A stretch of DNA of 64,000 nucleotides from an uncultured Bacteroidales bacterium (GCA_902802285.1 CADCLI010000001.1:4010-68009), one strand, 5' to 3'. Positions 7,870-50,349 are shown, counted from the first letter of the stretch. Notes: a model not told the origin generated them from the sequence alone. Numbers and translations are program-made.

Positions 7870-8697
7870 TTATTTGTTGAACATTTCCTTTATCATACCC
7901 TTGTGGAGCAGAACTGCGTTGAACAGTGCTTCAATGTTGACCTTGCTCTCAACGCCTTCCTTGTTTACAAGTACCTGGATGCTGCCGCCTGGAATCATCT
8001 CCGAATAGAGAGCAGAGGGATCAGCTTCGGACGTGTAGTCAAAATAGAGCTTACGGGCGATTTCATCGAGTGATGCGTTCAGAAGTACATCCCTGCGGTC
8101 CAGAATGATGATAGGATCGATGATTGCCTCCAGGTCACGTGCCTGATGGGTTGAGATGAGCAGGGTTGACTCATCGGATGTGTACTTTGAAACGGCCTTG
8201 CGGAACTGACCCTTGGAAGGTATGTCAAGTCCGTTGGTCGGCTCATCCATAAAGAGATACTTTGTGTTGCAAGCCAGTGCAAAACTGATGAAAGCCTTCT
8301 TGAGCTGACCGTATGACATATGGTCCATGCGCTGATTCTCATCTGTATCAAACACTTTCATTATCTCCGAAAACTTATCAATACTGAATTTGCTCCAGTA
8401 CTGGCCATGGTCACTTGCATAATCGATTGCCTTACGGCGCGGGGCCGGAACCTCATCGGGCAGATAATAGATATTGGAGAGGAATGACGGTGTGCGGTCA
8501 AACGGCTTCGGACCATCCACTTCAATAGATCCTTCCCTAACATCCTTAAGGCCGGCAAGCAAGGTCAGAAGTGTGGTCTTGCCCACTCCGTTCTCTCCCA
8601 GGAGTCCGTAAATGCGGCCCTCCTCAAGATTCATCGAAATGTCTTTCAGTACGACGTTGTCGCCGTAGCTGAATCCTAATTTCTTGATTGTAATCAT
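7870..8697 (-). CDS. ABC transporter ATP-binding protein
   Basis: Walker A GENGVGKTT, signature-like MSYGQLKK, and Walker B LFMDEPTNGLD. Confidence 0.85.
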   Translation of the reverse strand: MITIKKLGFSYGDNVVLKDISMNLEEGRIYGLLGENGVGKTTLLTLLAGLKDVREGSIEVDGPKPFDRTPSFLSNIYYLPDEVPAPRRKAIDYASDHGQYWSKFSIDKFSEIMKVFDTDENQRMDHMSYGQLKKAFISFALACNTKYLFMDEPTNGLDIPSKGQFRKAVSKYTSDESTLLISTHQARDLEAIIDPIIILDRRDVLLNASLDEIARKLYFDYTSEADPSALYSEMIPGGSIQVLVNKEGVESKVNIEALFNAVLLHKGMIKEMFNK

Positions 8698-8845
8698 TGT
8701 TGTATCGTTTGTTGTTGTTTGTTTATCGGTGTATTACTTTACTAAGACACTGCAAATATAAGGCGCAATTATTTACCGACAGCAGGATTAACATATTTTA
8801 ACTCTGTTCTGCGTATGTTTTACGCACGTGCGTACCTAATTAATT

Positions 8846-8985
8846 GCCATACCTATCACCACAGGCGTTGTAGCCCCGATTCCCTGCAAGTATGGCTCCA
8901 AAAATGGCCAAAACCCGGGTTTTCGCTGCCATACTTGCAGAAAACCGCCCTTTAAAGGCCATTTTACGCAGGTATGGCCATTTTT
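8846..8985. repeat. 140-bp nested-hairpin repeat, left copy (REPIN/MITE-like)
   Basis: Its reverse complement matches 12418..12557 with only a handful of mismatches by hand alignment. Internally, outer arms gccatacct/aggtatggc (8846-8854 / 8970-8978) enclose inner arms ctgcaagtatggc/gccatacttgcag (8884-8896 / 8928-8940). A central palindrome aaaacccgggtttt lies at 8910-8923. Confidence 0.85.
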
Positions 8986-9029
8986 AAAATACGCTGTACC
9001 TGCGTAACTGATTTGTCAGCAATTATCCA

Positions 9030-9037
9030 TATATTTG
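9030..9037 (+). promoter_or_regulatory. Candidate Bacteroidetes -7 promoter box (TAnnTTTG)
   Basis: tatatttg lies 28 nt upstream of the ATG at 9065. It overlaps the longer ORF start at 9035, which argues for the 9065 start. Confidence 0.35.
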
Positions 9038-9064
9038 CCAGACAAGAAACCTGATTACCATACT

Positions 9065-11215
9065 ATGAAAAAAGATCATCTCTTTGAACTGGCCGAGAGT
9101 TACATTTCCCAGACGGGAATATCGGTCTTTCTGACCGGCCGTGCAGGTACCGGAAAAACTACATTCCTCAAGTACATTGTTGAGAACACGCCCAAGCGCT
9201 GCGTAGTGCTGGCGCCAACAGGTGTGGCCGCAATCAATGCGGGCGGCGTTACGATCCATTCATTTTTCCAACTGCCGCTGTGCCCTTATCTTCCCGATGT
9301 CAAGGAACTGGTTACAGAGTATCAGTTGCCCGAGGCTCGACGTCAGTTGCGCAAGGAGAAGGTCAAGATAATAAAGACGCTGGACCTGCTGATAATAGAT
9401 GAGATATCCATGGTCCGCGCAGACCTGTTGGATGCCGTTGATGCCGTTATGCGCAGATACAGACACAACAGCAAACCTTTTGGCGGAGTGCAGTTGCTCA
9501 TGATAGGCGATGCACACCAGCTTCCGCCAGTAGTTACCGAACAGGATGAGCCATGGCTCAAAAAGGTATATCAGTCGCCTTTCTTCTTTCATTCCAAGGT
9601 GATGCAGCAGCTCAAATACGTTACTATAGAACTGCAAACGGTTTATCGTCAATCAGATACATCATTCCTGGATATACTCAACAGCATCCGTGGCGGAGTG
9701 ATGGACAACGCTACCTACCGCATGCTCAACAGCCGCCTGGATCCGCGTTTCAACCCCGATGACAGCTTTGCGTCATCGGGCCAACGATGGATCCACCTTA
9801 CCACCCACAACCGTCAGGCCGACAACATCAACCAGGAGAAAATGAAGGCCCTGAAAACAAGGTTGTACACATTCTACGCAGAGATAGAGGGCAATTTCCC
9901 TGAAAATACGCTTCCCGCTGAAAAGGTGCTACAACTCAAGGAAGGCGCACAGGTAATGTTCCTGCGCAATGACTCCCGCGAGGGACGGTACTATAACGGA
10001 AAGATAGCCACCGTAACCTCCATAGACTATGATGACGGCATCATAGTGACCGATGAAAACGGCGATGAAATCAATGTCCCGATTGAAAAATGGGAGAATA
10101 TCCAGTATGAGATAGACAAAGATACCAAGGAGATTGTACCCAAAGTAGAGGGAACTTTCTCACAGTATCCGCTGCGTGCCGCATGGGCTGTCACCATCCA
10201 CAAAAGCCAGGGACTGACGTTTGACAATGTAATCATTGATGCGGCATCGGCCTTCAGTTTCGGACAGGTTTATGTAGCTCTTTCACGCTGCCGTACCCTT
10301 GAAGGAATTGTTCTGAGCAGCCCCATATCGCAGTCCTGCCTGTTCAACAACAGCGATGTATCCGGATTCCATGAGCAGTTCCTGCCGGTATCCGAAATGG
10401 AACGTCAGTTGGAGGCATCTCGTGCTGAGTATTTCATGAACATTCTCAAAGAGTGTTTTAGGTTCAGCGAACTTGAAAGGCTTACCGGATGGGCAGGCGG
10501 TATATTCAACAATCATCTTAAAAACACCTATCCTGAGCAGACCGCCAGGATGGAAGAGAATCGCCGCAAGATCAGGGATATTGAAAAAGTAGCCGAGGCG
10601 TTCCGCCGTGAGTTGGACCGCATCGGCCTTACCGACAAGGCTCATTTAGATGAAAGAGTGGGCAAAGCGGCAGGATATTTCCTTCCGATACTTATTGAAG
10701 TGGCATCGGATGTAACTCCGATTATGTCCGTATCCATCGACAATAAGGATGTAAAGAAATCTCTTACTGAAGCATCGGGCGAACTTTTACCGGAGCTCTC
10801 CATGCACCTGCTAAGTATGAGAGAGATTCTTGATAAAGGATTCACGATTGAGTCATATCTCCGGATAAGAAATGATGCCCTGTTGTCATCCAAGCCTAAG
10901 ACAACGGTCAAGAATATAAAGGAGCCCAAGCCCGTAAAGGAGAAGGTTGTCAAGACCAAGCCCACAATAGAGGAAATCTACTCCGACAACCGCCACCCCG
11001 AACTCATCCAGCCGCTTATAGACTGGCGCACCGAACAATACATATCCCAGAACATCCGCGCCTACTGGGTACTCACCCAACGTACCCTCCTGGAAATAGC
11101 CGACACCTGCCCATCGACCAAAGAGGAACTCCTGGCCGTAAACGGATTCGGCCCCGCCAAATGGAAACAGTACGGCCAGCAGATCCTGGACCTGATAGCC
11201 AATCACAAAAAATAG
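9065..11215 (+). CDS. SF1B Pif1/RecD-family DNA helicase with C-terminal HRDC domain
   Basis: Walker A GRAGTGKTT, Walker B IIDEISMV, GDAHQLPPV and VTIHKSQGLTFD. The last roughly 75 aa (IDWRTEQYISQNIRAYWVLTQRTLLEIADTCPSTKEELLAVNGFGPAKWKQYGQQILDLI) look like an HRDC domain. The ORF track starts at 9035; ATG 9065 (MKKDHLFELAE) is preferred. Confidence 0.85.
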   Translation: MKKDHLFELAESYISQTGISVFLTGRAGTGKTTFLKYIVENTPKRCVVLAPTGVAAINAGGVTIHSFFQLPLCPYLPDVKELVTEYQLPEARRQLRKEKVKIIKTLDLLIIDEISMVRADLLDAVDAVMRRYRHNSKPFGGVQLLMIGDAHQLPPVVTEQDEPWLKKVYQSPFFFHSKVMQQLKYVTIELQTVYRQSDTSFLDILNSIRGGVMDNATYRMLNSRLDPRFNPDDSFASSGQRWIHLTTHNRQADNINQEKMKALKTRLYTFYAEIEGNFPENTLPAEKVLQLKEGAQVMFLRNDSREGRYYNGKIATVTSIDYDDGIIVTDENGDEINVPIEKWENIQYEIDKDTKEIVPKVEGTFSQYPLRAAWAVTIHKSQGLTFDNVIIDAASAFSFGQVYVALSRCRTLEGIVLSSPISQSCLFNNSDVSGFHEQFLPVSEMERQLEASRAEYFMNILKECFRFSELERLTGWAGGIFNNHLKNTYPEQTARMEENRRKIRDIEKVAEAFRRELDRIGLTDKAHLDERVGKAAGYFLPILIEVASDVTPIMSVSIDNKDVKKSLTEASGELLPELSMHLLSMREILDKGFTIESYLRIRNDALLSSKPKTTVKNIKEPKPVKEKVVKTKPTIEEIYSDNRHPELIQPLIDWRTEQYISQNIRAYWVLTQRTLLEIADTCPSTKEELLAVNGFGPAKWKQYGQQILDLIANHKK

Positions 11216-11276
11216 TACAATTGGGGTCTGACCCCATTGGTACTATTTCATCTGATTACCTTAAAAACAATATACT

Positions 11277-12413
11277 ATGAAACAAATGATTCACTGTTGT
11301 TTCACCTCTCACCACGAGGTGATGTTCCGTTGCCCGCAGGATGTGGGTTTCTTCCTTAACTTGCTTGCACTAACTTCATGGAAGTACGGTGTTGTTATTT
11401 TTGCCGATACCGAAATGTCAAACCATGTTCATTTATTGTTGTTTTCATCGGATAAAACCGAGAGTAGGCTGTCTGTTGGACCATATTCAAAGACCGTTAT
11501 TAAGCCCGGTTTTGACCGGGATGGCAGCATCCTATACTCCGAATCCAACCAGTTGTCAGATTTTATTACTGCCTTAAGAAAGCGGTATACATGGTATTTC
11601 ACTCAAAAATACCTGCGTGACTGCGGCGGAAGAATGGGTGAAAAATACTACTTCTCACTGATTATTGAGGGTAATTATCACATGATTTCAGCTTGCAGTT
11701 ATGTGCTCAGGAACGGCCTTCATCATGGAGTTTCAGGCACTTCATTCATGTATCCCTATTCATCCATCAATGATATGTTCATTCCCGAATTGGGAAAAAC
11801 GGAGCGCCCATACCAGGGAAACCGTAACCCTGATGAATACCACAAAAACAGGGCCGGTCACTGGATAAAGACAATATCTTCCGGGAACAAATCCACCCAT
11901 GGATTGGTCTTTCCCAACGGTTATTCTCCCATCACCAGCCGCAATGCCATAAAACTCTATCTGCCCAGGTATTCCGAATGGCCCGATGACTGGGTAATGT
12001 CTCCTTCCGGAGTATTCCTGAGGCCTTGTTTCGAGCAGTTGCGTCAAACCGAACTTCTGTTTGTTTCGCCCGGAGCATTTGAATACAATATGTTCCGCAA
12101 GACCGATGAAAAATGGCTTGAAGAGCAGGAGCAGGACAGAAACGGTAAGCCCGCAATAAGCATTTCCGACATAGAGCCAATCCACAATGAAGATGCCGTC
12201 AAATCCTATATGTACAATGAAAAGGCTGCTACTTTCCGTAACTGTCGAAGCGACATAGATTTGTGCGGCATTATTGACCGATGCATACTCCCTGAATTCA
12301 AATCTCCATCCATATACCAGCTCAGCCGCGATAAGCGGGAATCCATCAAAAGGATTCTAATGAATGATTTCCATGTGTCCGACAGTCAGGCCTCCCGCTG
12401 CCTGTGGCTGTAA
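11277..12413 (+). CDS. HUH single-tyrosine (Y1) nuclease/transposase-like protein, IS200/RAYT-like N-terminal domain with an extra roughly 200-aa C-terminal region
   Basis: HUH motif MSNHVHLLLF. Downstream, LRKRYTWYFTQKY...G and ACSYVLRNGLHHGV...YPYSS match the remembered Y1_Tnp layout (Y-x-x-x-N-P/G). The gene is flanked by hairpin repeats, as RAYT genes are. Confidence 0.6.
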   Translation: MKQMIHCCFTSHHEVMFRCPQDVGFFLNLLALTSWKYGVVIFADTEMSNHVHLLLFSSDKTESRLSVGPYSKTVIKPGFDRDGSILYSESNQLSDFITALRKRYTWYFTQKYLRDCGGRMGEKYYFSLIIEGNYHMISACSYVLRNGLHHGVSGTSFMYPYSSINDMFIPELGKTERPYQGNRNPDEYHKNRAGHWIKTISSGNKSTHGLVFPNGYSPITSRNAIKLYLPRYSEWPDDWVMSPSGVFLRPCFEQLRQTELLFVSPGAFEYNMFRKTDEKWLEEQEQDRNGKPAISISDIEPIHNEDAVKSYMYNEKAATFRNCRSDIDLCGIIDRCILPEFKSPSIYQLSRDKRESIKRILMNDFHVSDSQASRCLWL

Positions 12414-12417
12414 CGCA

Positions 12418-12557
12418 AAAAATGGCCATACCTGCGTAAAATGGCCTTTAAAAGGCGGTTTTTTGCAAGTATGGCAGCGAAAACCCGGGTTTTGGCCATT
12501 TTTGGAGCCATACTTGCAGAGAATCGGGGCTACAACGCTTGTGGTGACAGGTATGGC
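12418..12557. repeat. 140-bp nested-hairpin repeat, right copy (inverted relative to 8846..8985)
   Basis: Hand alignment of its reverse complement to 8846..8985 shows near identity over the full 140 nt, including the asymmetric arms. The inverted orientation is therefore real and not an artefact of the internal palindrome. Confidence 0.85.
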
Positions 12558-12577
12558 CGCAAAAGGGCGCAGGGGGT

Positions 12578-12617
12578 AAAAAAACAACGGCCCGCAACAG
12601 GAAGCTGCGGACCGTTG
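12578..12617 (-). terminator. Intrinsic terminator of the CoA-transferase gene
   Basis: On the minus strand, caacggtccgcag...ctgcgggccgttg forms a 13-bp stem including G-U pairs, followed by a run of 7 U. It lies directly downstream of the stop codon at 12636. Confidence 0.7.
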
Positions 12618-12635
12618 ATAGTACAAAGGCCTAGA

Positions 12636-14117
12636 TTAGAACTCGGCCAGGTGCATGTCGCCCTTCTCGGCCAGGGCCTTGTGCAGGGCAAAGGCTTTGT
12701 CGAGAGCGTGGCTGGTCTGACCCTTCTGGGCTATCTTGAGGTAATCCCACATGAGTTGCTTGTAGTCGGGGTGCACGCAGTTCTCGATGATGCACTTGGC
12801 GCGCTCGGCGGGTGACTTGCCGCGAAGGTCGGCTATACCCTGCTCAGTTATGAGAACCTTGACGCTGTGCTCGTTGTGGTCCACGTGTGTGCACATGGGA
12901 ACGATGGCGCTTATCTTGCCTCCCTTTGCTACTGACGGGCAGCTGAATATTGATATGAATGCGTTACGGGTGAAATCGGCAGATCCGCCTACGCCGTTCA
13001 TCATCTTGACACCGCTTACGTGGGTTGAGTTCACATTGCCGTAGATATCGGCCTCAAGGGCGGTGTTCATTGCGATAAGACCCAGACGGCGGGCAACCTC
13101 GGGGCTGTTGGAAATCTCGGTAGGACGGAGCACCAGCTTGTCCTTGAAGAAATCCATATCATCGTAGATGCTCTGCAGGGTCTCGTTGCTTACGCTCAGT
13201 GATGAGCTGGAGCCGAACTTGCAGTGACCCTCACGCATCAGGTTGATAACTGAATCCTGGATGACCTCTGTGTACATCTGGAATGCGGGAACCGACGGAT
13301 CCTCACCCAGGGCTCCCAGTACGGCGTTTGCCACATTACCCACACCGCTCTGCAAGGGCAGGAAAGTTGAAGGGATGATGCCGCGCTTAAGGTCAGAGAT
13401 AAGGAACTGTGCTACGTTGTGACCAATCTGGAGGGTGGTCTCATCGGGGGCGGTGAATCCGCGGGCCTCGTCGGGGATATTGACCTCTACTATGCCGATG
13501 ATCTTGGCAGGATCTACCTGAATGTAGTCCTTACCTATGTGGTCGCTGGGCTGATATACGGGAATCTCGCGGCGGTAAGGAGGATCGGCGGGCTCGTAGA
13601 TATCGTGCAGACCCTTGGCGCAACGGGCGTGGGCTGCATTGAGTTCGATGATGAGCTTATCGGCCAGACGGGCTACAGTTGGAGCGATACCGACACCGGC
13701 GGTTACCCAGATCTTTCCGTCCTCACTTACATCGAATGCCTCCATGATGCCGATGTTGAGCTTACCGTAGAATCCGTAACGGAGTTCCTGTGCCATCTGA
13801 CTCAGGTTGATATCGTTGTAAGCGATTTCACCGTTATTAACGGCTGTGCGGAAATCCTTGTTTGTGGTATAAGGGGCGCGATAGCGGATAGCGTGCTCAC
13901 GTGACAGTATGCCGTCACATGAATCGCCGGTGGATGCACCGGTGAATATGCTTATCTGGAACTCCTTACCCTGCTCATGAAGCTCATGGGCCATTAAACC
14001 GATCTCATGTGTTACGGCCTTGGGGGTACCGGCGGGGGTGAATCCGCTCAGACCTACGTTGTCACCGTTCTTGACAAAGCGTGCTGCCTCGGCAGCAGTC
14101 ATTTTTTTGAAAGCCAT
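12636..14117 (-). CDS. Acetyl-CoA hydrolase/transferase family enzyme (succinate/acetate CoA-transferase type)
   Basis: 493 aa. Shows N-terminal MTAAEAARFVKNGDNVGLSGFTPAGTPKA, then SGVGNVANAVL and NGVGGSADF, typical of the AcetylCoA_hydro/AcetylCoA_hyd_C family. Confidence 0.8.
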   Translation of the reverse strand: MAFKKMTAAEAARFVKNGDNVGLSGFTPAGTPKAVTHEIGLMAHELHEQGKEFQISIFTGASTGDSCDGILSREHAIRYRAPYTTNKDFRTAVNNGEIAYNDINLSQMAQELRYGFYGKLNIGIMEAFDVSEDGKIWVTAGVGIAPTVARLADKLIIELNAAHARCAKGLHDIYEPADPPYRREIPVYQPSDHIGKDYIQVDPAKIIGIVEVNIPDEARGFTAPDETTLQIGHNVAQFLISDLKRGIIPSTFLPLQSGVGNVANAVLGALGEDPSVPAFQMYTEVIQDSVINLMREGHCKFGSSSSLSVSNETLQSIYDDMDFFKDKLVLRPTEISNSPEVARRLGLIAMNTALEADIYGNVNSTHVSGVKMMNGVGGSADFTRNAFISIFSCPSVAKGGKISAIVPMCTHVDHNEHSVKVLITEQGIADLRGKSPAERAKCIIENCVHPDYKQLMWDYLKIAQKGQTSHALDKAFALHKALAEKGDMHLAEF

Positions 14118-15557: not shown

Positions 15558-15639
15558 AAAAACTTAAAACTCTTGACAAGGGGTATCTCGGGGTATTATC
15601 TTTGCGGTCGCTTTGCGCGTAGCGCGTGCGTACTCATAT

Positions 15640-18512: not shown

Positions 18513-19277
18513 ATGAACTTTGAAGAGGGTGTGATACTGGCTTTCGACAAACCTTACCGCTGGACATCGTTTAATGTGGTGGGTAAGGTCAGATGGCTTA
18601 TATGCCGCCGCCTGGGAGTGAAGAGACTGAAGGTGGGACATGCCGGAACCCTGGACCCTCTTGCCACGGGAGTACTGATTGTATGTACCGGGCGTGCCAC
18701 TAAACGCATTGAGGAACTGCAGTCAGGAACCAAAGAGTATTACGCCACGATACGTCTGGGAGCGACAACCCCGTCATATGACCTGGAGAAACCCATAGAC
18801 GCCACCTATCCCACCGGACACATCACCCGTGAAATGGTGGAACAGGTTCTGGAACGTTTCAGAGGTACCATCCAGCAGGTACCGCCCACATTCTCGGCCT
18901 GTAAGGTGGACGGCAAGCGCGCATATAAGATGGCCCGTCAGGGCGATGAGGTTGAACTCAAGCCCAAGACCCTGGTCATCGATGAACTGGAGCTGACCGA
19001 CTGCAACCTGCCGGATATAACCATCCGCGTGGTGTGCAGTAAAGGGACGTACATAAGGGCTTTGGCACGAGACATCGGTCAGGCGCTGGAGAGCGGAGGA
19101 CATCTGATTGCCTTAAGGCGTACCCGTGTGGGTGACTACAAGGTTGAGGATTGCCTGAACCCTGAAAAATTCACGGAGTGGCTGGACACCATTGAAATTG
19201 AGAATTTTTGGAGCAGTGAGAGGAGAGAAAGTTTACTTTCTATCCCGAATCGCGACAAAAATCATGGAACGAAGTGA
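18513..19277 (+). CDS. truB: tRNA pseudouridine(55) synthase
   Basis: The catalytic motif KVGHAGTLDPLATGVL is present. The last approximately 27 codons and the stop codon are encoded by the dispersed repeat at 19196..19298. Confidence 0.9.
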   Translation: MNFEEGVILAFDKPYRWTSFNVVGKVRWLICRRLGVKRLKVGHAGTLDPLATGVLIVCTGRATKRIEELQSGTKEYYATIRLGATTPSYDLEKPIDATYPTGHITREMVEQVLERFRGTIQQVPPTFSACKVDGKRAYKMARQGDEVELKPKTLVIDELELTDCNLPDITIRVVCSKGTYIRALARDIGQALESGGHLIALRRTRVGDYKVEDCLNPEKFTEWLDTIEIENFWSSERRESLLSIPNRDKNHGTK

Positions 19278-42863: not shown

Positions 42864-43220
42864 ATGAGGCAGTTGACCAAGAAAGAGAAGGAGATAATGG
42901 AGTTCTTCTGGAACAGGGGACCCATGTTTATAAGGGAGCTTCAGGGATGCTATGAAAAGGAGCCTAACTTCAGTACCCTTTCAACTCAGGTCCATACGCT
43001 CCAGGTGGACGGTTTCCTGGACCGGGAGGCATTCGGGAGCAATTACCGCTACTATCCGGTTGTAAGTGCCAGCGAATACTGCAACAGCGGCATACACGGT
43101 CTTATTGACCAATACCTGGACAGTTCATATTCAAGCGTGGTAATGGGATTCGTCAAGAACGAGAAACTATCTGTCGATGACCTTAAACGCATTATTGACA
43201 AGATTGAGAACGGCCAATGA
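42864..43220 (+). CDS. blaI: BlaI/MecI/CopY-family winged-helix transcriptional repressor
   Basis: 118 aa. N-terminal LTKKEKEIMEFFWNRGPMFIRELQ is typical of the Penicillinase_R family. It is translationally coupled (ATGA) to the M56 gene. Confidence 0.85.
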   Translation: MRQLTKKEKEIMEFFWNRGPMFIRELQGCYEKEPNFSTLSTQVHTLQVDGFLDREAFGSNYRYYPVVSASEYCNSGIHGLIDQYLDSSYSSVVMGFVKNEKLSVDDLKRIIDKIENGQ

Positions 43221-46200
43221 CTGCTTTCCTTATATATATAATGAAGGTGGCCATCCTGTCGGCTGTTTTCATAGTCCTTTACCACCTTCTGCTGCGGCAC
43301 GATACTTTCCACAGGGTGAACAGAATTGTTCTGGTTTCATCGCTGGTACTTTCCTATATCCTGCCGTTCGTGGTCATAACTGTACACAAGGATGGAGTGC
43401 CTGTCAGAAGAACCGGGATTGTGAATGAAAGACACGTTCAGGAGCAGGTCGCCCTGCCTTACCAGCCGGTCATCACCAGCGGAAGCGTATATTCATCGGC
43501 CCCAATGGATGAGACGGCTCAAGCAGACCACAGGCAGAACCTTACGCAGGTGATTGAGGTTACCGGCCGGGACTATAACCCCGAACCGGCGGTTGCACCA
43601 CGTAAAACCATACGGATTGACTGGCTGAAAGTACTGGCAGGAGTATATTTACTTGGGCTACTGATTGTGCTGGTGTATCGTATCCTAAGCACCACTAAAG
43701 TCATTGGAATAATACAGAAAGCCGATGTGGTTGAAAAGAACAGTGATTTCACGCTTGTTCAGACCAGACAGTCAGTACATCCTTTCAGCTGGATGAGATA
43801 CATAGTATTGCCGCGGGAGGGTAAAGCCTCCGGACAGACTCCTATCCTGGACCATGAGAAGGCACATCTGGCGCATCATCACTCACAGGAACTGCTCTGG
43901 ACCGATGTTCTGTCCGCCCTGCAGTGGTTCAACCCCGTCATGCTTCTTTTCCGCCGGGACCTCTACTCTATTCATGAGTTCCAGGCCGATGCCGACGTGC
44001 TCCAAAAGGGGGTTGACCGCAAGCAGTACCAGTACCTGATGCTGGACTGCGCTACCGACAAGACGGAATTCAGAGCCGCCAATACATTCAGAAAAAGTAC
44101 CTTAGAAGGAAGAATCGATATGATCAACAAAAAAAATTCCGCAAGAACTAGCCTTTTGAAACTTGCCTACATTCCGGTCCTGTTGCTATTTGCAATGAAC
44201 GCGTTTGCCGAGAGAGTTTATGACGATGACCTCAGTGAGGTCCTTGAAGTTGACAACTATGTCCGTATTGACGGCCTTTGGTATAAGTTCAAAGGCAATC
44301 AGGTGCGTGTGGTAAGCCGCAAGACTAAGCACGACTATCCCGCTGAAATAGTGATTCCCGACACTATCATCTACAAGAATGTAAAGTATCCGGTCACCTC
44401 AATCGGAAGCATGGCATTCCAGCATGATGAGAAGATAAAGTCTGTGACCATTCCATCCACGGTCAAGGAGATTGAGGAGGGTTCTTTTTACAGTTGTACG
44501 GGACTTGAACGGATTGTAATCCCTGCATCGGTCAGAAGTATCGGAGATAGAGCTTTTGTAGAGTGTCGCAATCTGAAGTCAATATCCATTCCGGCCTCTG
44601 TAAGACAGATAGGATACGCGGCATTTGCGGGTACAGGACTTGAATCCATAACCGTACAGGAAGGAAACCCGTACTATGACAGCCGTCTGGACTGCAACGC
44701 CATTATTGAAACCGCATCCAACACCCTGCTTTACGGATCCTCAAAAACCGTAATACCGCCAACAGTTACAGCCATAGGCGAATCGGCTTTTGCAGGAAAC
44801 ACCAAGCTGAAAACAATTGGAATTCCGGCCAGTGTCACCACTATAGGAAACCGTGCATTCACGGAATGCACTTCACTACAGTCAATCGTAATTCCGGGTA
44901 CGGTACAGAAGCTTGATTACGGTTGCTTTCAGCACACAGGTATAAAAAGCCTCACAATAAACGGAAGTATTGAATTGCTTTCTTACGCGTTCACGGAATG
45001 CGACTCACTGGAAACGGTTATTTACGGTCCGGGAGCAACATCTGTAGATATACCTCGCAGATGTCCCAATCTGAGACACCTGTTCATCCCGGCAACCGTC
45101 ACACAAATACAGAATAATCAGAATAACTATCAACTGAATCTGGAATCAATCATAGTTGAGGAGGGCAATCCTGTATATGACAGTCGTGAGGATTGCAATG
45201 CAATTATAGAGACTGCCACAGACAGGCTGATTCTGGGCTGCAGCAATACCGTCATTCCCAACACTGTCAGGTCCATATCGAATTACGCTTTCACCGGCGG
45301 TCATCTCAAGGAACTGAATATTCCGGCATCGGTCAGAGAAATAGGCCCATACATATTTCAGAATCCGTTTGATGCCCGATCTGTTAACGCTCCAAATTAC
45401 ATCAAGGACCTGAACAGGATTGTGGTTGACCCCGCCAATCCGGTCTATGACAGCCGTGAGGGTTGTAATGCCATAATATGGAAGGCCACCAACCTATTGC
45501 TGATTGCATGTAAGTCAACCACCATTCCTGAATCTGTCAGGTCTATTGCCGAAAACGCATTCATGAAACAGGACGGCCTGACGGAGCTCACAATCCCCGA
45601 TGGTGTGACTACAATAATGACAGGTGCATTCTCATACTGCACCAATCTGGAGAAGATAAAAATAGGTGCAGGCCTTAAAGAGTTGTCTCCCAATGCTTTC
45701 ATGGGCTGCCCCAATATATCGGAAATAAAGGTCAGTCCGTCCAACAGGACTTATGACAGCCGTAATGACTGCAATGCCGTTATCGAGACTGCAACCGGAA
45801 AACTGGTAATGGGAAGTGCCAACACCGTAATACCTGACGGGGTGACCACTATAGGGCAGAACGCTTTCTTATCAAACCAGAAGATCACATCGATAAAACT
45901 GCCTCAATCGGTAAACACGATTGAAGATTATGCTTTTTACAATTGCACCAATCTGGAAGAGATAAACCTGGACAACATTATAAGGAAAGGAGACAGGGCG
46001 CTTGACGGGACTGCATCCGTCAGATTCACTTATGCTGACAGCATAAACGGATTCATGCATTTCCAGCTGCGCGGAAAGGAGGCTATTCTTTACCATGTAT
46101 GGGATAACGCCCCTGCAAAAGTCGCCATACCTCAATCTTTTGATTACAACGGAAAGACATATACCGTCACCGAGATTGCAGACAATGCTTTCAGTTCAAA

Positions 46201-47776
46201 TTCCGCTATAGAGTCAGTTTCCGTACCGGGTTCGGTGAGGATAATCGGACAAGATGCTTTCTCCGAATGTTCGGGACTCAAGAGAGTTATACTTGACAAT
46301 GGCCTGACTGCCATCCAGGATAACGCTTTTGCATACTGCAGCAGTCTTGAAAGCATAGAACTGCCTGCAACACTTGAGCATATAGGTAGAGCCGCTTTTA
46401 CCCGGAGCGGTCTCAAATCACTTGATATTCCGGCCTCTGTGACCTCTTTGGGGCGGAACATAACTCTTGACTGCAGGTATCTCAAATCGATTAAAGTCAA
46501 TTCCGCCAACAAGGTGTTTGACAGCCGCAGGAACTGCAACGCCATAATCAAGACCGATATCAACCTGCTCCTGGAGGGCTGCCGCAGCACAAGGATACCC
46601 AAGGATATTGTTGCTATAGGACCCTACGCATTTGCAGGTGCTTCCGGACTCAAAAGGATAGATATTCCGTCATCGGTACAATACATATTTGACCGCGCAT
46701 TTGCTTTCTGCCCGTTGCAGAAGATTGAGATTCCGGCATCGGTATCGCTCATGGATGACAATCCTTTCTTCGGTTGCGGCAGTATCCGCTCCATCACTGT
46801 CAAAAGCGGCAACCCCAGTTATTCCAGCCCATCCGGGTGCAATGCCATAATATCAAACGGAAATGACATCAGGGTTATACGCTATCCCGAAGTCAAGGTT
46901 TTACTGGATTATCTTAAAGAGGGACAATACATGAGCCGGAGACCCGGTACGCTTATACAGGGATGCCGCAATACAGTGATTTCTGCATCATGCACAATCA
47001 TCGGTTACCAATCATTTGCGTATTGTGAAGGGCTTGAAAGGATTGACATACCTGAAGGCGTGGTTACCGTAGAACATAATGCTTTTGAAAAATGTCCGGA
47101 CCTGAAAGAGTTGCATCTCTCCGCTACCGTGACAGATTTCAACAAATCCGATTATTGTCCTGAACTGGCAATAATAACCGTTGACCCAGCAAATCCTGTA
47201 TATGACAGCCGTGAGGGTTGCAATGCCATAATTGAAACTGAACATGACAATCTGATATTAGGCTGCAGGAATACCGTCATACCTTCAACGGTCAAGTATA
47301 TTGACGGTAATGCCTTTGCCCACGTACGCGGATTAAAGTCAATTGTCATTCCTGATTCTGTAGAGAGATTAGGTTATCAGTCATTCAGGGATTGCGCAGA
47401 TTTGGAATCCGTATTCATTTCAAGTTCTGTAAGATACTTGTCTTCATCATACTGGCAGGAAGACAGAGGTGAGGATAATGTTATCCCCCAGCAACCGTTC
47501 TATTACTGTCCCAAACTGACACGCATTACCGTTGACAGTGAAAATCCATATTTTGACAGCCGTGATAATTGCAATGCCATAATTGAGACATCAACCAGAA
47601 ACCTTAGAGTGGGCTGTAGCGGCACCATTGAACCCGAAAGCATGTCATCAGTCAGGCCTGACGCTTATCAGACCCTGGAAAATGACATCTACGAAACAGA
47701 TTACCTCAGCACCTCCTGGGTTTTCCCCGACGGACGAATGGTCCACACCTACTATGCCGAAGACTACGATGATTAA
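43217..47776 (+). CDS. BlaR1-like M56 membrane metalloprotease/sensor fused to a roughly 1150-aa BspA-type leucine-rich-repeat ectodomain
   Basis: N-terminal TM helices plus HEKAHLAHHH...FNPV...HEFQADADV (the M56 signature). After a TM segment near residue 320 (LLKLAYIPVLLLFAMNAFA) come many approximately 23-aa LRR_5 units (IPxSVxxIGxxAFxxCxxL). These are punctuated 8 times by the motif NPxYDSRxxCNAIIE. Confidence 0.8.
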   Translation: MTAFLIYIMKVAILSAVFIVLYHLLLRHDTFHRVNRIVLVSSLVLSYILPFVVITVHKDGVPVRRTGIVNERHVQEQVALPYQPVITSGSVYSSAPMDETAQADHRQNLTQVIEVTGRDYNPEPAVAPRKTIRIDWLKVLAGVYLLGLLIVLVYRILSTTKVIGIIQKADVVEKNSDFTLVQTRQSVHPFSWMRYIVLPREGKASGQTPILDHEKAHLAHHHSQELLWTDVLSALQWFNPVMLLFRRDLYSIHEFQADADVLQKGVDRKQYQYLMLDCATDKTEFRAANTFRKSTLEGRIDMINKKNSARTSLLKLAYIPVLLLFAMNAFAERVYDDDLSEVLEVDNYVRIDGLWYKFKGNQVRVVSRKTKHDYPAEIVIPDTIIYKNVKYPVTSIGSMAFQHDEKIKSVTIPSTVKEIEEGSFYSCTGLERIVIPASVRSIGDRAFVECRNLKSISIPASVRQIGYAAFAGTGLESITVQEGNPYYDSRLDCNAIIETASNTLLYGSSKTVIPPTVTAIGESAFAGNTKLKTIGIPASVTTIGNRAFTECTSLQSIVIPGTVQKLDYGCFQHTGIKSLTINGSIELLSYAFTECDSLETVIYGPGATSVDIPRRCPNLRHLFIPATVTQIQNNQNNYQLNLESIIVEEGNPVYDSREDCNAIIETATDRLILGCSNTVIPNTVRSISNYAFTGGHLKELNIPASVREIGPYIFQNPFDARSVNAPNYIKDLNRIVVDPANPVYDSREGCNAIIWKATNLLLIACKSTTIPESVRSIAENAFMKQDGLTELTIPDGVTTIMTGAFSYCTNLEKIKIGAGLKELSPNAFMGCPNISEIKVSPSNRTYDSRNDCNAVIETATGKLVMGSANTVIPDGVTTIGQNAFLSNQKITSIKLPQSVNTIEDYAFYNCTNLEEINLDNIIRKGDRALDGTASVRFTYADSINGFMHFQLRGKEAILYHVWDNAPAKVAIPQSFDYNGKTYTVTEIADNAFSSNSAIESVSVPGSVRIIGQDAFSECSGLKRVILDNGLTAIQDNAFAYCSSLESIELPATLEHIGRAAFTRSGLKSLDIPASVTSLGRNITLDCRYLKSIKVNSANKVFDSRRNCNAIIKTDINLLLEGCRSTRIPKDIVAIGPYAFAGASGLKRIDIPSSVQYIFDRAFAFCPLQKIEIPASVSLMDDNPFFGCGSIRSITVKSGNPSYSSPSGCNAIISNGNDIRVIRYPEVKVLLDYLKEGQYMSRRPGTLIQGCRNTVISASCTIIGYQSFAYCEGLERIDIPEGVVTVEHNAFEKCPDLKELHLSATVTDFNKSDYCPELAIITVDPANPVYDSREGCNAIIETEHDNLILGCRNTVIPSTVKYIDGNAFAHVRGLKSIVIPDSVERLGYQSFRDCADLESVFISSSVRYLSSSYWQEDRGEDNVIPQQPFYYCPKLTRITVDSENPYFDSRDNCNAIIETSTRNLRVGCSGTIEPESMSSVRPDAYQTLENDIYETDYLSTSWVFPDGRMVHTYYAEDYDD

Positions 47777-47792: not shown

Positions 47793-47915
47793 AATTCTCA
47801 ATTTTCAATTATGTAATTCGTTCCATGATTTTTGTCGCGATTCGGGATAGAAAGTAAACTTTCTCTCCTCTCACTGCTCCAAAAATTCTCAATTCTCAAT
47901 TCTCAATTCTCAATT
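47793..47915. repeat. Dispersed roughly 100-nt repeat with (AATTCTC)n tail, copy 2 (inverted relative to copy 1)
   Basis: Core 47817-47894 is the exact reverse complement of 19196-19273. It is flanked by aattctcaattttcaatt (47793-47810) and by ttctcaa x4 (47886-47915). Confidence 0.85.
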
Positions 47916-48088: not shown

Positions 48089-49381
48089 ATGTCATACCTA
48101 TTCACATCCGAATCGGTGTCCGAGGGACACCCTGACAAGGTAGCGGACCAGATATCCGATGCCGTCGTTGACGAACTTCTGGCCTTTGACCCAGACTCAA
48201 AGGTAGCATGTGAGACCCTTGTCACCACCGGACAGGTGGTGCTGGCAGGTGAGGTCAAATCCCGCGCATATGTAGATTTGCAGGATATTGCCCGCCAAGT
48301 GATTAACCGTATAGGCTATACCCGCTCCGAGTACAAGTTTGACGGAGACTCATGCGGTGTATTCAGCGCCATACACGAGCAGAGCGCCGACATAAACCGC
48401 GGCGTGGAGCGCGAGGACCCCGAGAACCAGGGAGCCGGTGACCAGGGTATGATGTTCGGTTACGCCACAAACGAGACCGATGAATACATGCCGGTTTCGC
48501 TTGCCCTGTCACACCGTATACTGCGTGTTCTGGCCGATATCCGCCGCGAGGGCAAGCAGATGACCTATCTGCGTCCCGACTCCAAGAGCCAGGTGACTGT
48601 TGAGTACAATGACAACGGCAAGCCCGTACGCATAGATACAATCGTGGTTTCAACCCAGCACGATGAGTTCATTGCACCTGAGAAAGATACTGTTGAGGCT
48701 CAGCTGGAGGCTGATGCCAAGATGCTGGCACAGATTGAGAGCGATGTTAAGAACATTCTGATACCGCGTGTAGTCAGCACCATTACATCGGACAAGGTCA
48801 AGGCTCTTTTTAACGGTGAAATCAAGTATTTTGTCAATCCCACCGGCAAGTTCGTGATTGGCGGACCGCACGGAGACACAGGTCTTACAGGCCGTAAGAT
48901 AATTGTCGATACCTACGGAGGCAAGGGAGCCCACGGCGGCGGTGCATTCAGCGGCAAGGACCCCAGCAAGGTGGACCGCAGTGCCGCATACGCAACACGT
49001 CACATAGCCAAGAACCTGGTTGCCGCAGGTGTGGCCGATGAGGTGCTGGTGCAGGTATCATACGCCATCGGCGTGGCCAAGCCCATCAACATATTTGTAA
49101 ACACCTACGGCACCAGCCACGTCAGACTGACCGATGCCCAGATAGCCGATAAGGTGAATGAGATTTTCGATATGCGCCCCAAGGCCATTGAAAACCGTCT
49201 CAAGCTGCGCAACCCCATCTACAGCGAGACTGCAGCCTACGGACACATGGGTCGTGAGCCCCAGACCGTTACCAAGGTCTTTACATCACACTACATGCCG
49301 GCCAAGACCGTCACGGTGGAGCTATTCACCTGGGAAAAACTTGACTACGTAGACAAAATCAAGCAAGCCTTCAATCTTTAA
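48089..49381 (+). CDS. metK: S-adenosylmethionine synthetase
   Basis: [31 protein letters not shown] and [16 protein letters not shown]. Confidence 0.95.
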
Positions 49382-49387
49382 AATGAT

Positions 49388-49412
49388 ACAAAAGGGGACT
49401 GTCCCCTTTTGT
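49388..49412. terminator. Bidirectional intrinsic terminator between convergent metK and the transglycosylase gene
   Basis: The palindrome acaaaaggggac-t-gtccccttttgt is flanked by A/T runs on both sides. Confidence 0.7.
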
Positions 49413-49413
49413 A

Positions 49414-50349
49414 CTATTTTACCCAGGCGGGGCTGTGAACCTTGGTCTTGGAAGGATCGTAATGCTCCGCCTTTACATCGGGAATGGCAACGTAGTAGGT
49501 GCGGTGGGATTTGTTGTTTAGCTTGGACTCACGCAGCCAGAGGTTGGCCCGCTTGAGATCGGCATAAGATACACCGTGTTTCTCGGCAAAATCCACCAAA
49601 TCCTCAACAGGATCGGTTATCTTGACCTGCTCCTTGATGGGGATATACGGATAGAGGTCCTCGCGCCTGAAACTGAATCCGAACCGGGCGGGATCCTCAA
49701 ACATCATCTTGACCGCCAGCAGGCGGAACATGTAGCGCGAGGTCTCCTCGACCAACCACATATCCATGGCATCTTTCTGATGCTGTGCCTCTATGCGGCG
49801 GTCCATGCCCTGCTGACCGCCGTTGTAACTGGCTGCTACTGTCATCCAGTTGCCATACTTGCTGTATGCCTCCTTCAGGAAACGGCATGCAGCCTCGGTT
49901 GCCTTTTCGGTATTGAAACGCTCATCGATATTGGCATTCACCTCTAGTCCGTAAGCACGACCGGTGGACTGGGTAAACTGCCATAGGCCGGCTGCGCCCG
50001 CACCCGACTGGGCCTGCGGGTCCAGGTTGCTCTCAATCACCATCAGGTACTTAAGGTCATCGGGCACTCCCATACGCTCCAGAATGGGTTCTATCTGCGG
50101 AAAATACCGGTTGGCCCTCCTTATCATCAGTGTGGATGTGGAGTGCGTATATGTGAATGCTATAAGCTCACGGTCCATTCGTTCCCTCAGGTCGGCCCGG
50201 TCCAGTCTTACGGTTTGACCGGCAAATACTACCGATTGGGGAACAGAAGGCGGAGCAGGCTGTACGGGCTGTCCTGATGTTGGAATCGTAACTGATGCCA
50301 TAGCGAAAGAAATCAGTCCGGTAAAGAGAATATGCAATTGCCTTTTCAT
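49414..50349 (-). CDS. Lytic murein transglycosylase (SLT domain, MltD-like)
   Basis: Signal peptide present. The SLT catalytic region is LMVIESNLDPQAQSGAGAAGLWQFTQSTG (catalytic E-S motif). Confidence 0.8.
   Translation of the reverse strand: MKRQLHILFTGLISFAMASVTIPTSGQPVQPAPPSVPQSVVFAGQTVRLDRADLRERMDRELIAFTYTHSTSTLMIRRANRYFPQIEPILERMGVPDDLKYLMVIESNLDPQAQSGAGAAGLWQFTQSTGRAYGLEVNANIDERFNTEKATEAACRFLKEAYSKYGNWMTVAASYNGGQQGMDRRIEAQHQKDAMDMWLVEETSRYMFRLLAVKMMFEDPARFGFSFRREDLYPYIPIKEQVKITDPVEDLVDFAEKHGVSYADLKRANLWLRESKLNNKSHRTYYVAIPDVKAEHYDPSKTKVHSPAWVK

Follow-up and report, generated by a model that had tools for sequence, protein, structure and literature searches.

A stretch of 64,000 nt from an uncultured Bacteroidales bacterium (GCA_902802285.1 CADCLI010000001.1:4010-68009), here called the window, contains a gene for a Pif1-family helicase and a gene for a putative HUH nuclease with a single catalytic tyrosine (Y1), which are enclosed by inverted repeats of 140 nt (positions 8846 to 12557). 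A previous sequence-only reading had proposed that both genes form a split Rep-plus-helicase module. Our analysis supports a different interpretation: the locus is probably a REPtron-like unit, consisting of a RAYT-like protein and its cognate double-hairpin elements, which lies beside an unrelated resident helicase.

A scan for relatives with one genome per species gave 159 loci, 80 of which were kept. Outside the window clade, 66 loci could be evaluated, and in 45 of them repeats within 1.3 kb bracketed only the HUH gene. These repeats had a length of about 50-500 nt, typically 100-150 nt, and were direct in 37 loci and inverted in 8; the downstream copy was mostly located 5-30 nt past the HUH stop codon. 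Hairpin stems had been selected for complementarity, so the association was measured by enrichment over control windows from the same loci. Within 200 nt past the HUH stop codon, hairpins with a stem of 11 bp or more were present in 52/80 loci compared to 53/1580 control windows, and two or more such hairpins in 32/80 loci compared to 8/1580 control windows. The stems were clade-specific (e.g., TGCCGCGTTTACAC, TGCCGTGTTGACAC, GCCAAACTTGCA, GCCAATACTGCA) with a constant build of two units about 82 nt apart, and this architecture tracked the HUH gene across the 80 loci, down to 30% protein identity. Paralogs on one contig (L010/L049 and L011/L050) had different repeats. Clustering of the neighboring open reading frames (ORFs) revealed no gene family common to more than 11 of 81 loci. 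We concluded that the repeats belong to the HUH gene and not to the helicase-HUH pair, to which the sequence-only reading had tied them. The analogy to RAYT genes and REPIN hairpins that it had drawn was upheld.

Tandem arrays with a period of 83 nt were also present at some loci. In L029 (8408-8949 and 10928-12510), and also in L031 and L058, they adjoined short-clade HUH genes. Arrays of the L029 type had up to 9.1 copies per run (9.1 units in L029 itself) and a total length of about 1.6 kb, and resembled BIME-2-type REP clusters.

Only loci L002-L011 (10 of the 80 genome loci), in which HUH identity was at least 74%, had the helicase immediately upstream of the HUH gene. L012-L080 (69/80 loci) had no helicase at a distance of up to 10 kb from the HUH gene. 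The adjacency of both genes was, therefore, conserved in one clade only, and the genes were unlinked in most relatives, a situation which the sequence-only reading itself had named as counting against a two-gene module. In L081 and L082, which have a helicase with 83% identity, the order was MiaB-like gene, CoA-transferase, helicase, ABC ATPase, GntR, RNase R with intergenic gaps of 120 nt and 115 nt; the HUH gene and the element were both missing. Both were also lacking in L083 (helicase 78% identical), where the order was ABC, helicase, CoA-transferase. L127 had the gene order of L081 and, in addition, the HUH gene and a single element between the helicase stop codon and the conserved sequence upstream of the ABC gene (TGTTAAAGTGTGTTAATTG); the element upstream of the helicase was absent. 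Taken together, the empty locus, the locus with one element, and the locus with two flanking elements indicated that the inserted unit was composed of the HUH gene and an element. The comparison of empty sites, which had been suggested from the sequence, thus supported an insertion but not the gene pair as a unit. With a helicase alone at the empty sites and 69 HUH loci lacking a helicase nearby, the split Rep-plus-helicase module was not supported.

The product of ORF 9065-11215 matched Pfam PIF1 (E 3.2e-30, 105.8 bits at a cut-off of 25.9) and HRDC (E 7.2e-16, 58.4 bits at a cut-off of 23.8), in agreement with the initial assignment as Pif1-family helicase with an HRDC domain. Its homologs formed at least 8000 clusters with a smooth identity gradient in Bacteroidaceae, and the family was at least 100-fold larger than the HUH family with its 58 clusters. 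Among close relatives, the helicase showed 92-95% amino-acid identity and a ratio of nonsynonymous to synonymous substitutions (dN/dS) of 0.04-0.06, like the flanking CoA-transferase. It looks like an ancestral resident gene of the housekeeping type, a bystander rather than a partner of the HUH gene. PADLOC and PHROGs gave only generic SF1B or Dda-like partial matches to the helicase and no match to the HUH protein; an origin of the locus as a defense module or from a phage was not supported by these searches.

Further observations were made at related sites. At the empty site in L081 (8146-8156), the helicase stop codon was followed by GCCAT and then by the conserved sequence upstream of the ABC gene. 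GCCAT represents the first five bases of the stem motif of the element and may be a footprint or a chance match. The helicase had opposite orientations in L081 (6001-8148) and L083 (6001-8190) relative to the same ABC/CoA-transferase neighbors. Either elements were once present there and were lost after inversion, or the gene flips by another route. L079 (26-2716) is from a distant Bacteroidales genome, and its contig ends just upstream of a short-clade HUH gene with 31% identity. This gene directly adjoined a homolog of the same ABC/GntR operon (ABC 62%), which reflects either an old shared position or coincidence.

Sequence motifs and a predicted fold assign the product of ORF 11277-12413 to the Y1 HUH superfamily, with RAYT/TnpA_REP as the nearest group, of which it would be a new, C-terminally extended member. 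It harbors an HVH motif at residues 50-52 and Tyr142 within YVLRNGLHHG (family consensus Y-V-L-R-N-[GP]-L-H-H-G). Among 45 aligned homologs with 34-95% identity, H50, H52, Y142, R145, H149, and H150 were invariant and N146 nearly so. Only a single Tyr of the catalytic type was invariant in these 45 sequences, and no two-Tyr Rep motif was present. NHVH and Y-x-x-x-N-[PG] signatures mark class 2 (RAYT-like) of the TnpA_Y1 proteins, while class 1 of the IS200 type has Y-x-x-x-Q (PMC6006769); the window HUH family carries signatures of the class 2 type. Pfam Y1_Tnp was matched at E ≤ 0.01 by 12 of the 45 family members (best E 2e-6). An AlphaFold model of the protein had a pLDDT of 85.8 and a pTM of 0.85, and the top 30 PDB matches in Foldseek were all IS200/IS605 TnpA proteins (ISDra2, IS608, IS200) or the E. 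coli RAYT 4er8. These matches comprised the N-terminal approx. 135 residues with a probability of 0.97-1.00 (1.00 for 26/30) and a target TM of 0.50-0.66. Thus, the Y1 HUH identity proposed from the sequence was backed by the invariant motifs, the Y1_Tnp matches within the family, and the fold, though the window protein itself remained below the Y1_Tnp cut-off.

The homolog search retrieved 58 HUH clusters, all unnamed or "hypothetical", from metagenome-assembled genomes of Bacteroidaceae/Bacteroidales. An exhaustive profile search gave 206 representatives at E ≤ 1e-30 and 12,585 at E ≤ 1e-3, which indicates a family of moderate size that is weakly connected to a far larger superfamily. The C-terminal domain (residues about 170-378) was family-specific and conserved in the family; when this half was modeled separately (pLDDT 77, pTM 0.37), Foldseek found no fold match (best E 1.7). 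The window protein, as a member of the long clade of HUH proteins, has a disordered insert at residues 65-89. An in-frame insertion of the element, as in RAYT subclass 2.4, was considered for this insert and rejected, as it had no similarity to the element. The dN/dS of the HUH gene was 0.06-0.14, indicating purifying selection on the gene. Disrupted HUH genes of the window clade, frameshifted or internally deleted, with flanking elements kept were seen in L011 (10001-10861), L097 (1267-1793), and L104 (2266-2792), indicating that the gene is dispensable in some lineages. A literature search found no description of the HUH family or of an HUH-Pif1 pair in Bacteroidales.

The 140-nt inverted repeats described by the sequence-only reading were confirmed. 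The sequence 8846-8985 and the reverse complement of 12418-12557 were identical at 135/140 positions (96%), with the arms 3432 nt apart and both genes enclosed, and they represent the longest inverted repeat in the window. A search with the 12-mer stem, allowing up to one mismatch, detected four stem sites inside the arms and no third element copy in the 64 kb; the sole extra hit was an unrelated site at 49852. In each arm, a 12-nt motif occurs four times with alternating orientation, giving two hairpin units of about 50 nt, 82 nt apart, with stems of 12-14 bp and loops of 23-33 nt. Alternatively, both units can fold as a single nested hairpin. The single-strand DNA fold of the element was better than all 200 shuffles (z-scores of -3.5 to -4.1; -3.5 and -3.8 for the left copy). 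An Rfam scan of 8000-13500 at E ≤ 1 gave only two chance matches to miRNA models, indicating that the element is not a known RNA family. The element pattern was not found in viral contigs. The foot of the hairpins was (T)GCC...GGC(A) in most clades.

In relatives (L010, L005, L011), the element reached 164-180 nt by a fifth arm, which the window has retained at the left copy (8996-9007) but lost at the right copy. Copies in other species showed 93-99% identity to the left copy, and L008 had a copy with 99% identity to the right arm of the window. Compared to L005 or L010, the elements of the window were 93.5-94% identical across all 140 nt, while the coding genes showed a synonymous divergence (dS) of 0.43-0.95. 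The element is, therefore, far more conserved than synonymous sites, and the whole element including the loops is under strong constraint or is homogenized by conversion or transfer.

The surroundings of the unit were divided into the blocks X (RNase R, GntR, a 292-aa ORF, ABC ATPase), S1 (helicase, HUH), S2 (CoA-transferase, MiaB-like gene), and Y (gene at 15613 onward). The same four blocks surrounded the unit in every window-clade locus with visible flanking genes. They occurred in at least five arrangements among the relatives, all joined at elements. The order X(-) S1(+) S2 Y(+) of the window was also seen in L006, L009, L011, L118, L122, and L130. S1 was inverted in place in L007, L008, L010, L112, L117, and L123. 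An inverted S1+S2 block, with a third element that bounds S2 at the S2/X junction, was present in L003-L005 and L094. S1 was next to Y in L002, L107, and L124, and the order was Y, S1, X in L093. The orientation of block X relative to the enclosed segment also varied.

L123 belongs to the species of the window, with flanks of 98.6% and 97.8% nucleotide identity. S1 was inverted in L123 compared to the window, and the breakpoints of the alignment were inside both elements. The inverted segment had only 91.4% identity (8.6% divergence compared to about 2% in the flanks), and the dS was 0.57 for the helicase and 0.075 for the CoA-transferase. This strong divergence of the segment indicated that both orientations are old alleles and not states of a fast switch. 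We concluded that this part of the chromosome has been inverted repeatedly, with the elements as breakpoints. The inverted allele (L123 4328-8041 compared to window 8846-12557) was also a mosaic: the helicase had 88.7% nucleotide identity, the adjacent HUH gene 96.0% with a dS of only 0.13, and the closest helicase allele to that of L123 among the sampled species was only 90.3% identical.

A pattern scan of metagenome contigs retrieved 61 stretches. This locus accounted for 19 of them, 41 were solo copies, and one (L120) lacked the architecture of the element. The solo copies had the full architecture with four motifs and were intergenic, often 1-6 nt from a stop codon; three of them were on one 125-kb contig. 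For several solo copies, one flank was common between contigs and the other flank differed, indicating rearrangement at the element. Dispersal of the element is real in some genomes, which so far are outside the species of the window. For the unit itself, the caution of the sequence-only reading that mobility is not demonstrated was upheld.

In RAYT systems, a gene together with its own flanking palindromic repeats is named a REPtron (PMC6006769). The locus shares many features with RAYT/TnpA_REP of E. coli and Pseudomonas (PDB 4er8): the Y1 HUH fold with its catalytic motifs, a single gene copy for each repeat type, stems that co-vary with the protein clade, palindromic repeats that flank the gene as doublets or sometimes as alternating tandem arrays, extragenic copies, and vertical inheritance at a fixed locus. 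In contrast to RAYTs, the window family has 300-378 aa with a C-terminal domain of about 200 residues and fails the curated hidden Markov models (HMMs). Its hairpins are larger, with the stems, loops, and 82-nt period given above and without a GTAG/CGTC foot, and the flanking copies are mostly direct. Apparently, only two copies are present in the window species, compared to tens to hundreds in RAYT genomes. We concluded that the locus probably works like a REPtron, though outside the curated RAYT models.

Quentin et al. (2018) described subclass 2.6 of TnpA_Y1 from Bacteroidetes with "atypical secondary structures" and about 179 aa, and subclasses 2.1 and 2.3 with large C-terminal domains and no REPs (PMC6006769). 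The window family resembles these subclasses in the NHVH and Y-x-x-x-N-P signatures, in its Bacteroidota host, in the atypical structures that flank the gene, and in having an additional C-terminal domain. Judged from these descriptions, it is set apart from all described TnpA_Y1 subclasses by the combination of a large C-terminal domain with flanking repeats. Further differences are its length of 300-378 aa compared to subclass 2.6 and the Y motif YVLRN[GP]LHHG instead of YIH[QN]NP; a WQ/WE motif was not evident. IS200/IS605 TnpA proteins (IS608, ISDra2), which recognize subterminal hairpins on single-stranded DNA, were the best structural matches. Unlike these elements, the window unit is single-copy at a fixed locus, the gene does not move with the ends, near-identical repeats replace distinct left and right ends, tnpB is missing, and N instead of Q is present at position Y+4. 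The eukaryotic rolling-circle transposase RepHel of Helitrons also combines an HUH nuclease and a Pif1-family helicase. At this locus, however, the two genes are separate and differ in their evolutionary histories, the nuclease is of the Y1 and not the Y2 type, inverted repeats take the place of Helitron termini, and the linkage is limited to one genus-level clade. Inversions mediated by repeats (IS, REP, rrn) are similar in that inverted copies bound segments which differ in orientation between strains or species. They differ from the present case, in which the repeats have only about 140 nt and a cluster of two or three copies rearranges small housekeeping blocks at one locus.

In the REPtron-like scenario, the 140-nt repeats would be the cognate elements of the HUH protein, comparable to REPIN/BIME elements. 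By analogy to TnpA_REP and to the IS200/IS605 TnpA proteins of IS608 and ISDra2, the HUH protein may bind the hairpins on single-stranded DNA. It may cleave and rejoin DNA at the foot of the hairpin, with Tyr142 covalently linked to the DNA in the intermediate and the metal ion coordinated by H50 and H52. As suggested by the biochemistry of the same enzymes, such activity would copy or maintain the elements. The HUH gene with one element would have been placed just downstream of the resident helicase, and a second element upstream of it, so that the pair would enclose both genes by chance. Recombination between these two inverted copies would flip the 3.4-kb segment, and a third copy nearby would allow neighboring blocks to flip as well. 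The comparison among relatives shows this flipping, for which either the HUH enzyme or ordinary homologous recombination may be responsible. It is also conceivable, though doubtful, that the HUH enzyme and its double-hairpin sites form a chromosomal DNA-shuffling system, which would invert and permute housekeeping blocks by HUH-catalyzed cleavage and rejoining at the elements, possibly with single strands exposed in this clade by the enclosed helicase. If true, a Y1 HUH nuclease, instead of a serine or tyrosine recombinase, would be the enzyme behind such a shufflon, and the strong conservation of the 140 nt would reflect a role as recombination site.

Several results weigh against the interpretation as a REPtron-like unit. 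The product of ORF 11277-12413 reached only 11.9 bits with Pfam Y1_Tnp (PF01797; cut-off 23) and 12 bits with NCBIfam NF047646 (REP_Tyr_transpos; cut-off 80), and the family profile had zero matches to PDB sequences even at E ≤ 10. The GTAG/CGTC tetranucleotide of canonical REPs is absent from the feet of the hairpins. The four alternating motifs could equally be protein-binding sites on double-stranded DNA, and covarying stems fit both hairpins and such sites. In the window species, the element is not dispersed: two copies were present in the 64-kb window, and only this locus was matched on contigs of 192 kb and 299 kb. The solo copies found elsewhere were just 70-85% identical to any HUH-linked copy. 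Finally, in all of the approx. 20 window-clade loci that span the junction (10/10 genome loci and every such metagenomic locus), the helicase and the HUH gene were strictly adjacent and co-directional, about 50-65 nt apart, and a Bacteroides-type promoter motif was not evident before the HUH gene.

The last two points would fit a functional helicase-HUH link specific for this lineage, which we consider unlikely. The HUH protein would then have recruited the adjacent Pif1-like helicase for unwinding DNA and exposing the hairpins, as a split, Helitron-like module of two genes. Both proteins are expected to act on single-stranded DNA, and an element was never found between the two genes, so that both invert together. 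Such a module is hard to reconcile with the helicase alone at the empty sites, with the 69 HUH loci that lack it, and with L127, which has no element upstream of the helicase. Moreover, the helicase belongs to a family at least 100-fold larger than that of the HUH protein, evolves like the housekeeping flanks, and is separated from the HUH gene by a terminator-like palindrome, and the HUH protein has one Tyr of the catalytic type compared to two in Helitron Rep. A transposon that carries both genes as a unit between terminal inverted repeats of 140 bp, similar to a TIRYT or an IS, is the least probable of the alternatives. Near-identical inverted repeats closely bracket two DNA-processing genes, and Y1 genes with terminal inverted repeats (TIRYT) have been described previously (PMC6006769). 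Against this, the unit was always among the same four blocks in the window clade and in single copy per contig, even on the contigs of 192-299 kb, the element was missing from viral contigs, the flanking copies were mainly direct across the family, and the empty sites retained the helicase, leaving the HUH gene and an element as the inserted unit.

A programmed invertible switch (inverton) that regulates the enclosed or neighboring genes would explain why inverted repeats bound the segment, why both orientations are found in one species (window, L130, and L122 compared to L123), and why the orientation varies repeatedly among species. We regard it as very unlikely in view of the 8.6% divergence between the same-species orientations compared to about 2% in the flanks and the high dS of the helicase. 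In addition, a Bacteroides-type promoter motif for the helicase was seen by eye inside the segment, and no gene for a serine or tyrosine invertase was present in or beside it. Marginally less credible than a switch are host regulatory or structural sequences (terminators, mRNA stabilizers, or a small RNA) unrelated to the HUH protein and simply frequent in these intergenic regions. The copies often start 1-6 nt past a stop codon, have a strong single-strand structure, and are conserved over their whole length, including the loops, far beyond synonymous sites. Against host sequences of this kind, the architecture with clade-specific stems followed the HUH gene over 80 loci down to 30% identity, an Rfam match was absent, and the copies found in the window species were confined to the HUH locus.

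The features of the locus are listed in the table below. A spacer of 79 nt separates the left arm from the helicase ATG, and one of 4 nt separates the last base of the HUH stop codon (12413) from the right arm. Both ORFs are co-directional and lie inside the inverted repeat. An in-frame upstream TTG at 9035 opens the listed helicase ORF; the ATG at 9065 was preferred as the start because the homologs have 715-717 aa. Beyond the ABC ATPase, block X harbors the 292-aa ORF without Pfam match, the GntR-family regulator, and RNase R.

Features of the helicase-HUH locus and its direct neighbors (positions in the window)
Feature	Position	Strand	Basis or details
ABC ATPase, first gene of flanking block X, outside the element	7870..8697	-	
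Left copy of the double-hairpin element (about 140 nt)	8846..8985	+	Repeat search, stem search, single-strand fold
Stem motifs of the left copy	GCCATACCTATC 8846-8857; TGCAAGTATGGC 8885-8896; GCCATACTTGCA 8928-8939; CGCAGGTATGGCC 8967-8979		Alternating orientation
Extra half-hairpin arm GTACCTGCGTAA at 8996-9007	8986..9007	+	Pairs with 8964-8985
Pif1/RecD-like SF1B helicase with C-terminal HRDC, 716 aa	9065..11215	+	Pfam
Terminator-like 40-nt palindrome between helicase and HUH gene	11209..11248	strandless	GGGG..CCCC palindrome family
Predicted divergent Y1 HUH (RAYT/TnpA_REP-like) protein, 378 aa	11277..12413	+	Motifs, fold
Right element copy, inverted relative to left	12418..12557	-	Stem motifs 12425-12436, 12464-12475, 12507-12518, 12547-12557
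Acetyl-CoA hydrolase/transferase gene (12636-14117) and terminator-like hairpin (12585-12617)	12585..14117	-	

Palindromes of about 40 nt with the pattern GTACAA..GGGGxC..GxCCCC..TTGTAC were present at gene ends in the window (11209-11248 and 49381-49420), in L002 (1-60), in L009 (9944-9984 and 14223-14264), and in L127 (5965-6005), and also adjoined several solo elements. These Bacteroidales probably use them as intrinsic terminators. Elsewhere in the window, a perfect inverted repeat of 78 nt was found at 19196-19273 and 47817-47894, with 28.5 kb between its arms. The arm at 19196-19273 overlaps with the 3' end of ORF 18513-19277, and the other is located 40 nt past the stop codon of a 1519-aa ORF (43217-47776). 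A tRNA was tested as an explanation for the repeat and rejected; it could bound another large invertible segment or represent a further repeat family. The 1519-aa ORF contains at least eight diverged internal repeat copies with a conserved core of about 45 nt and a spacing of 270-765 nt. It encodes a repeat-domain protein and is unrelated to the element and the HUH gene.

The similarity of this locus to a module of the Helitron type, with an HUH gene and a Pif1 helicase within inverted repeats, calls for caution, since it arose from insertion beside a resident helicase. The REPtron-like interpretation adds an unannotated branch to the RAYT/REPtron systems, with about 200 clusters at 50% identity from rumen and gut Bacteroidales. 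The branch is novel in its C-terminal domain and in its unusually large double-hairpin repeats, and databases list its proteins as hypothetical. Moreover, relatives provide a natural series at one locus, from the empty site to the HUH gene with one element, to two or three elements in several orders, and to an old inversion within a species. This series may be used to ask whether enzymes of the RAYT type rearrange genomes and why single-copy enzymes of this kind persist.

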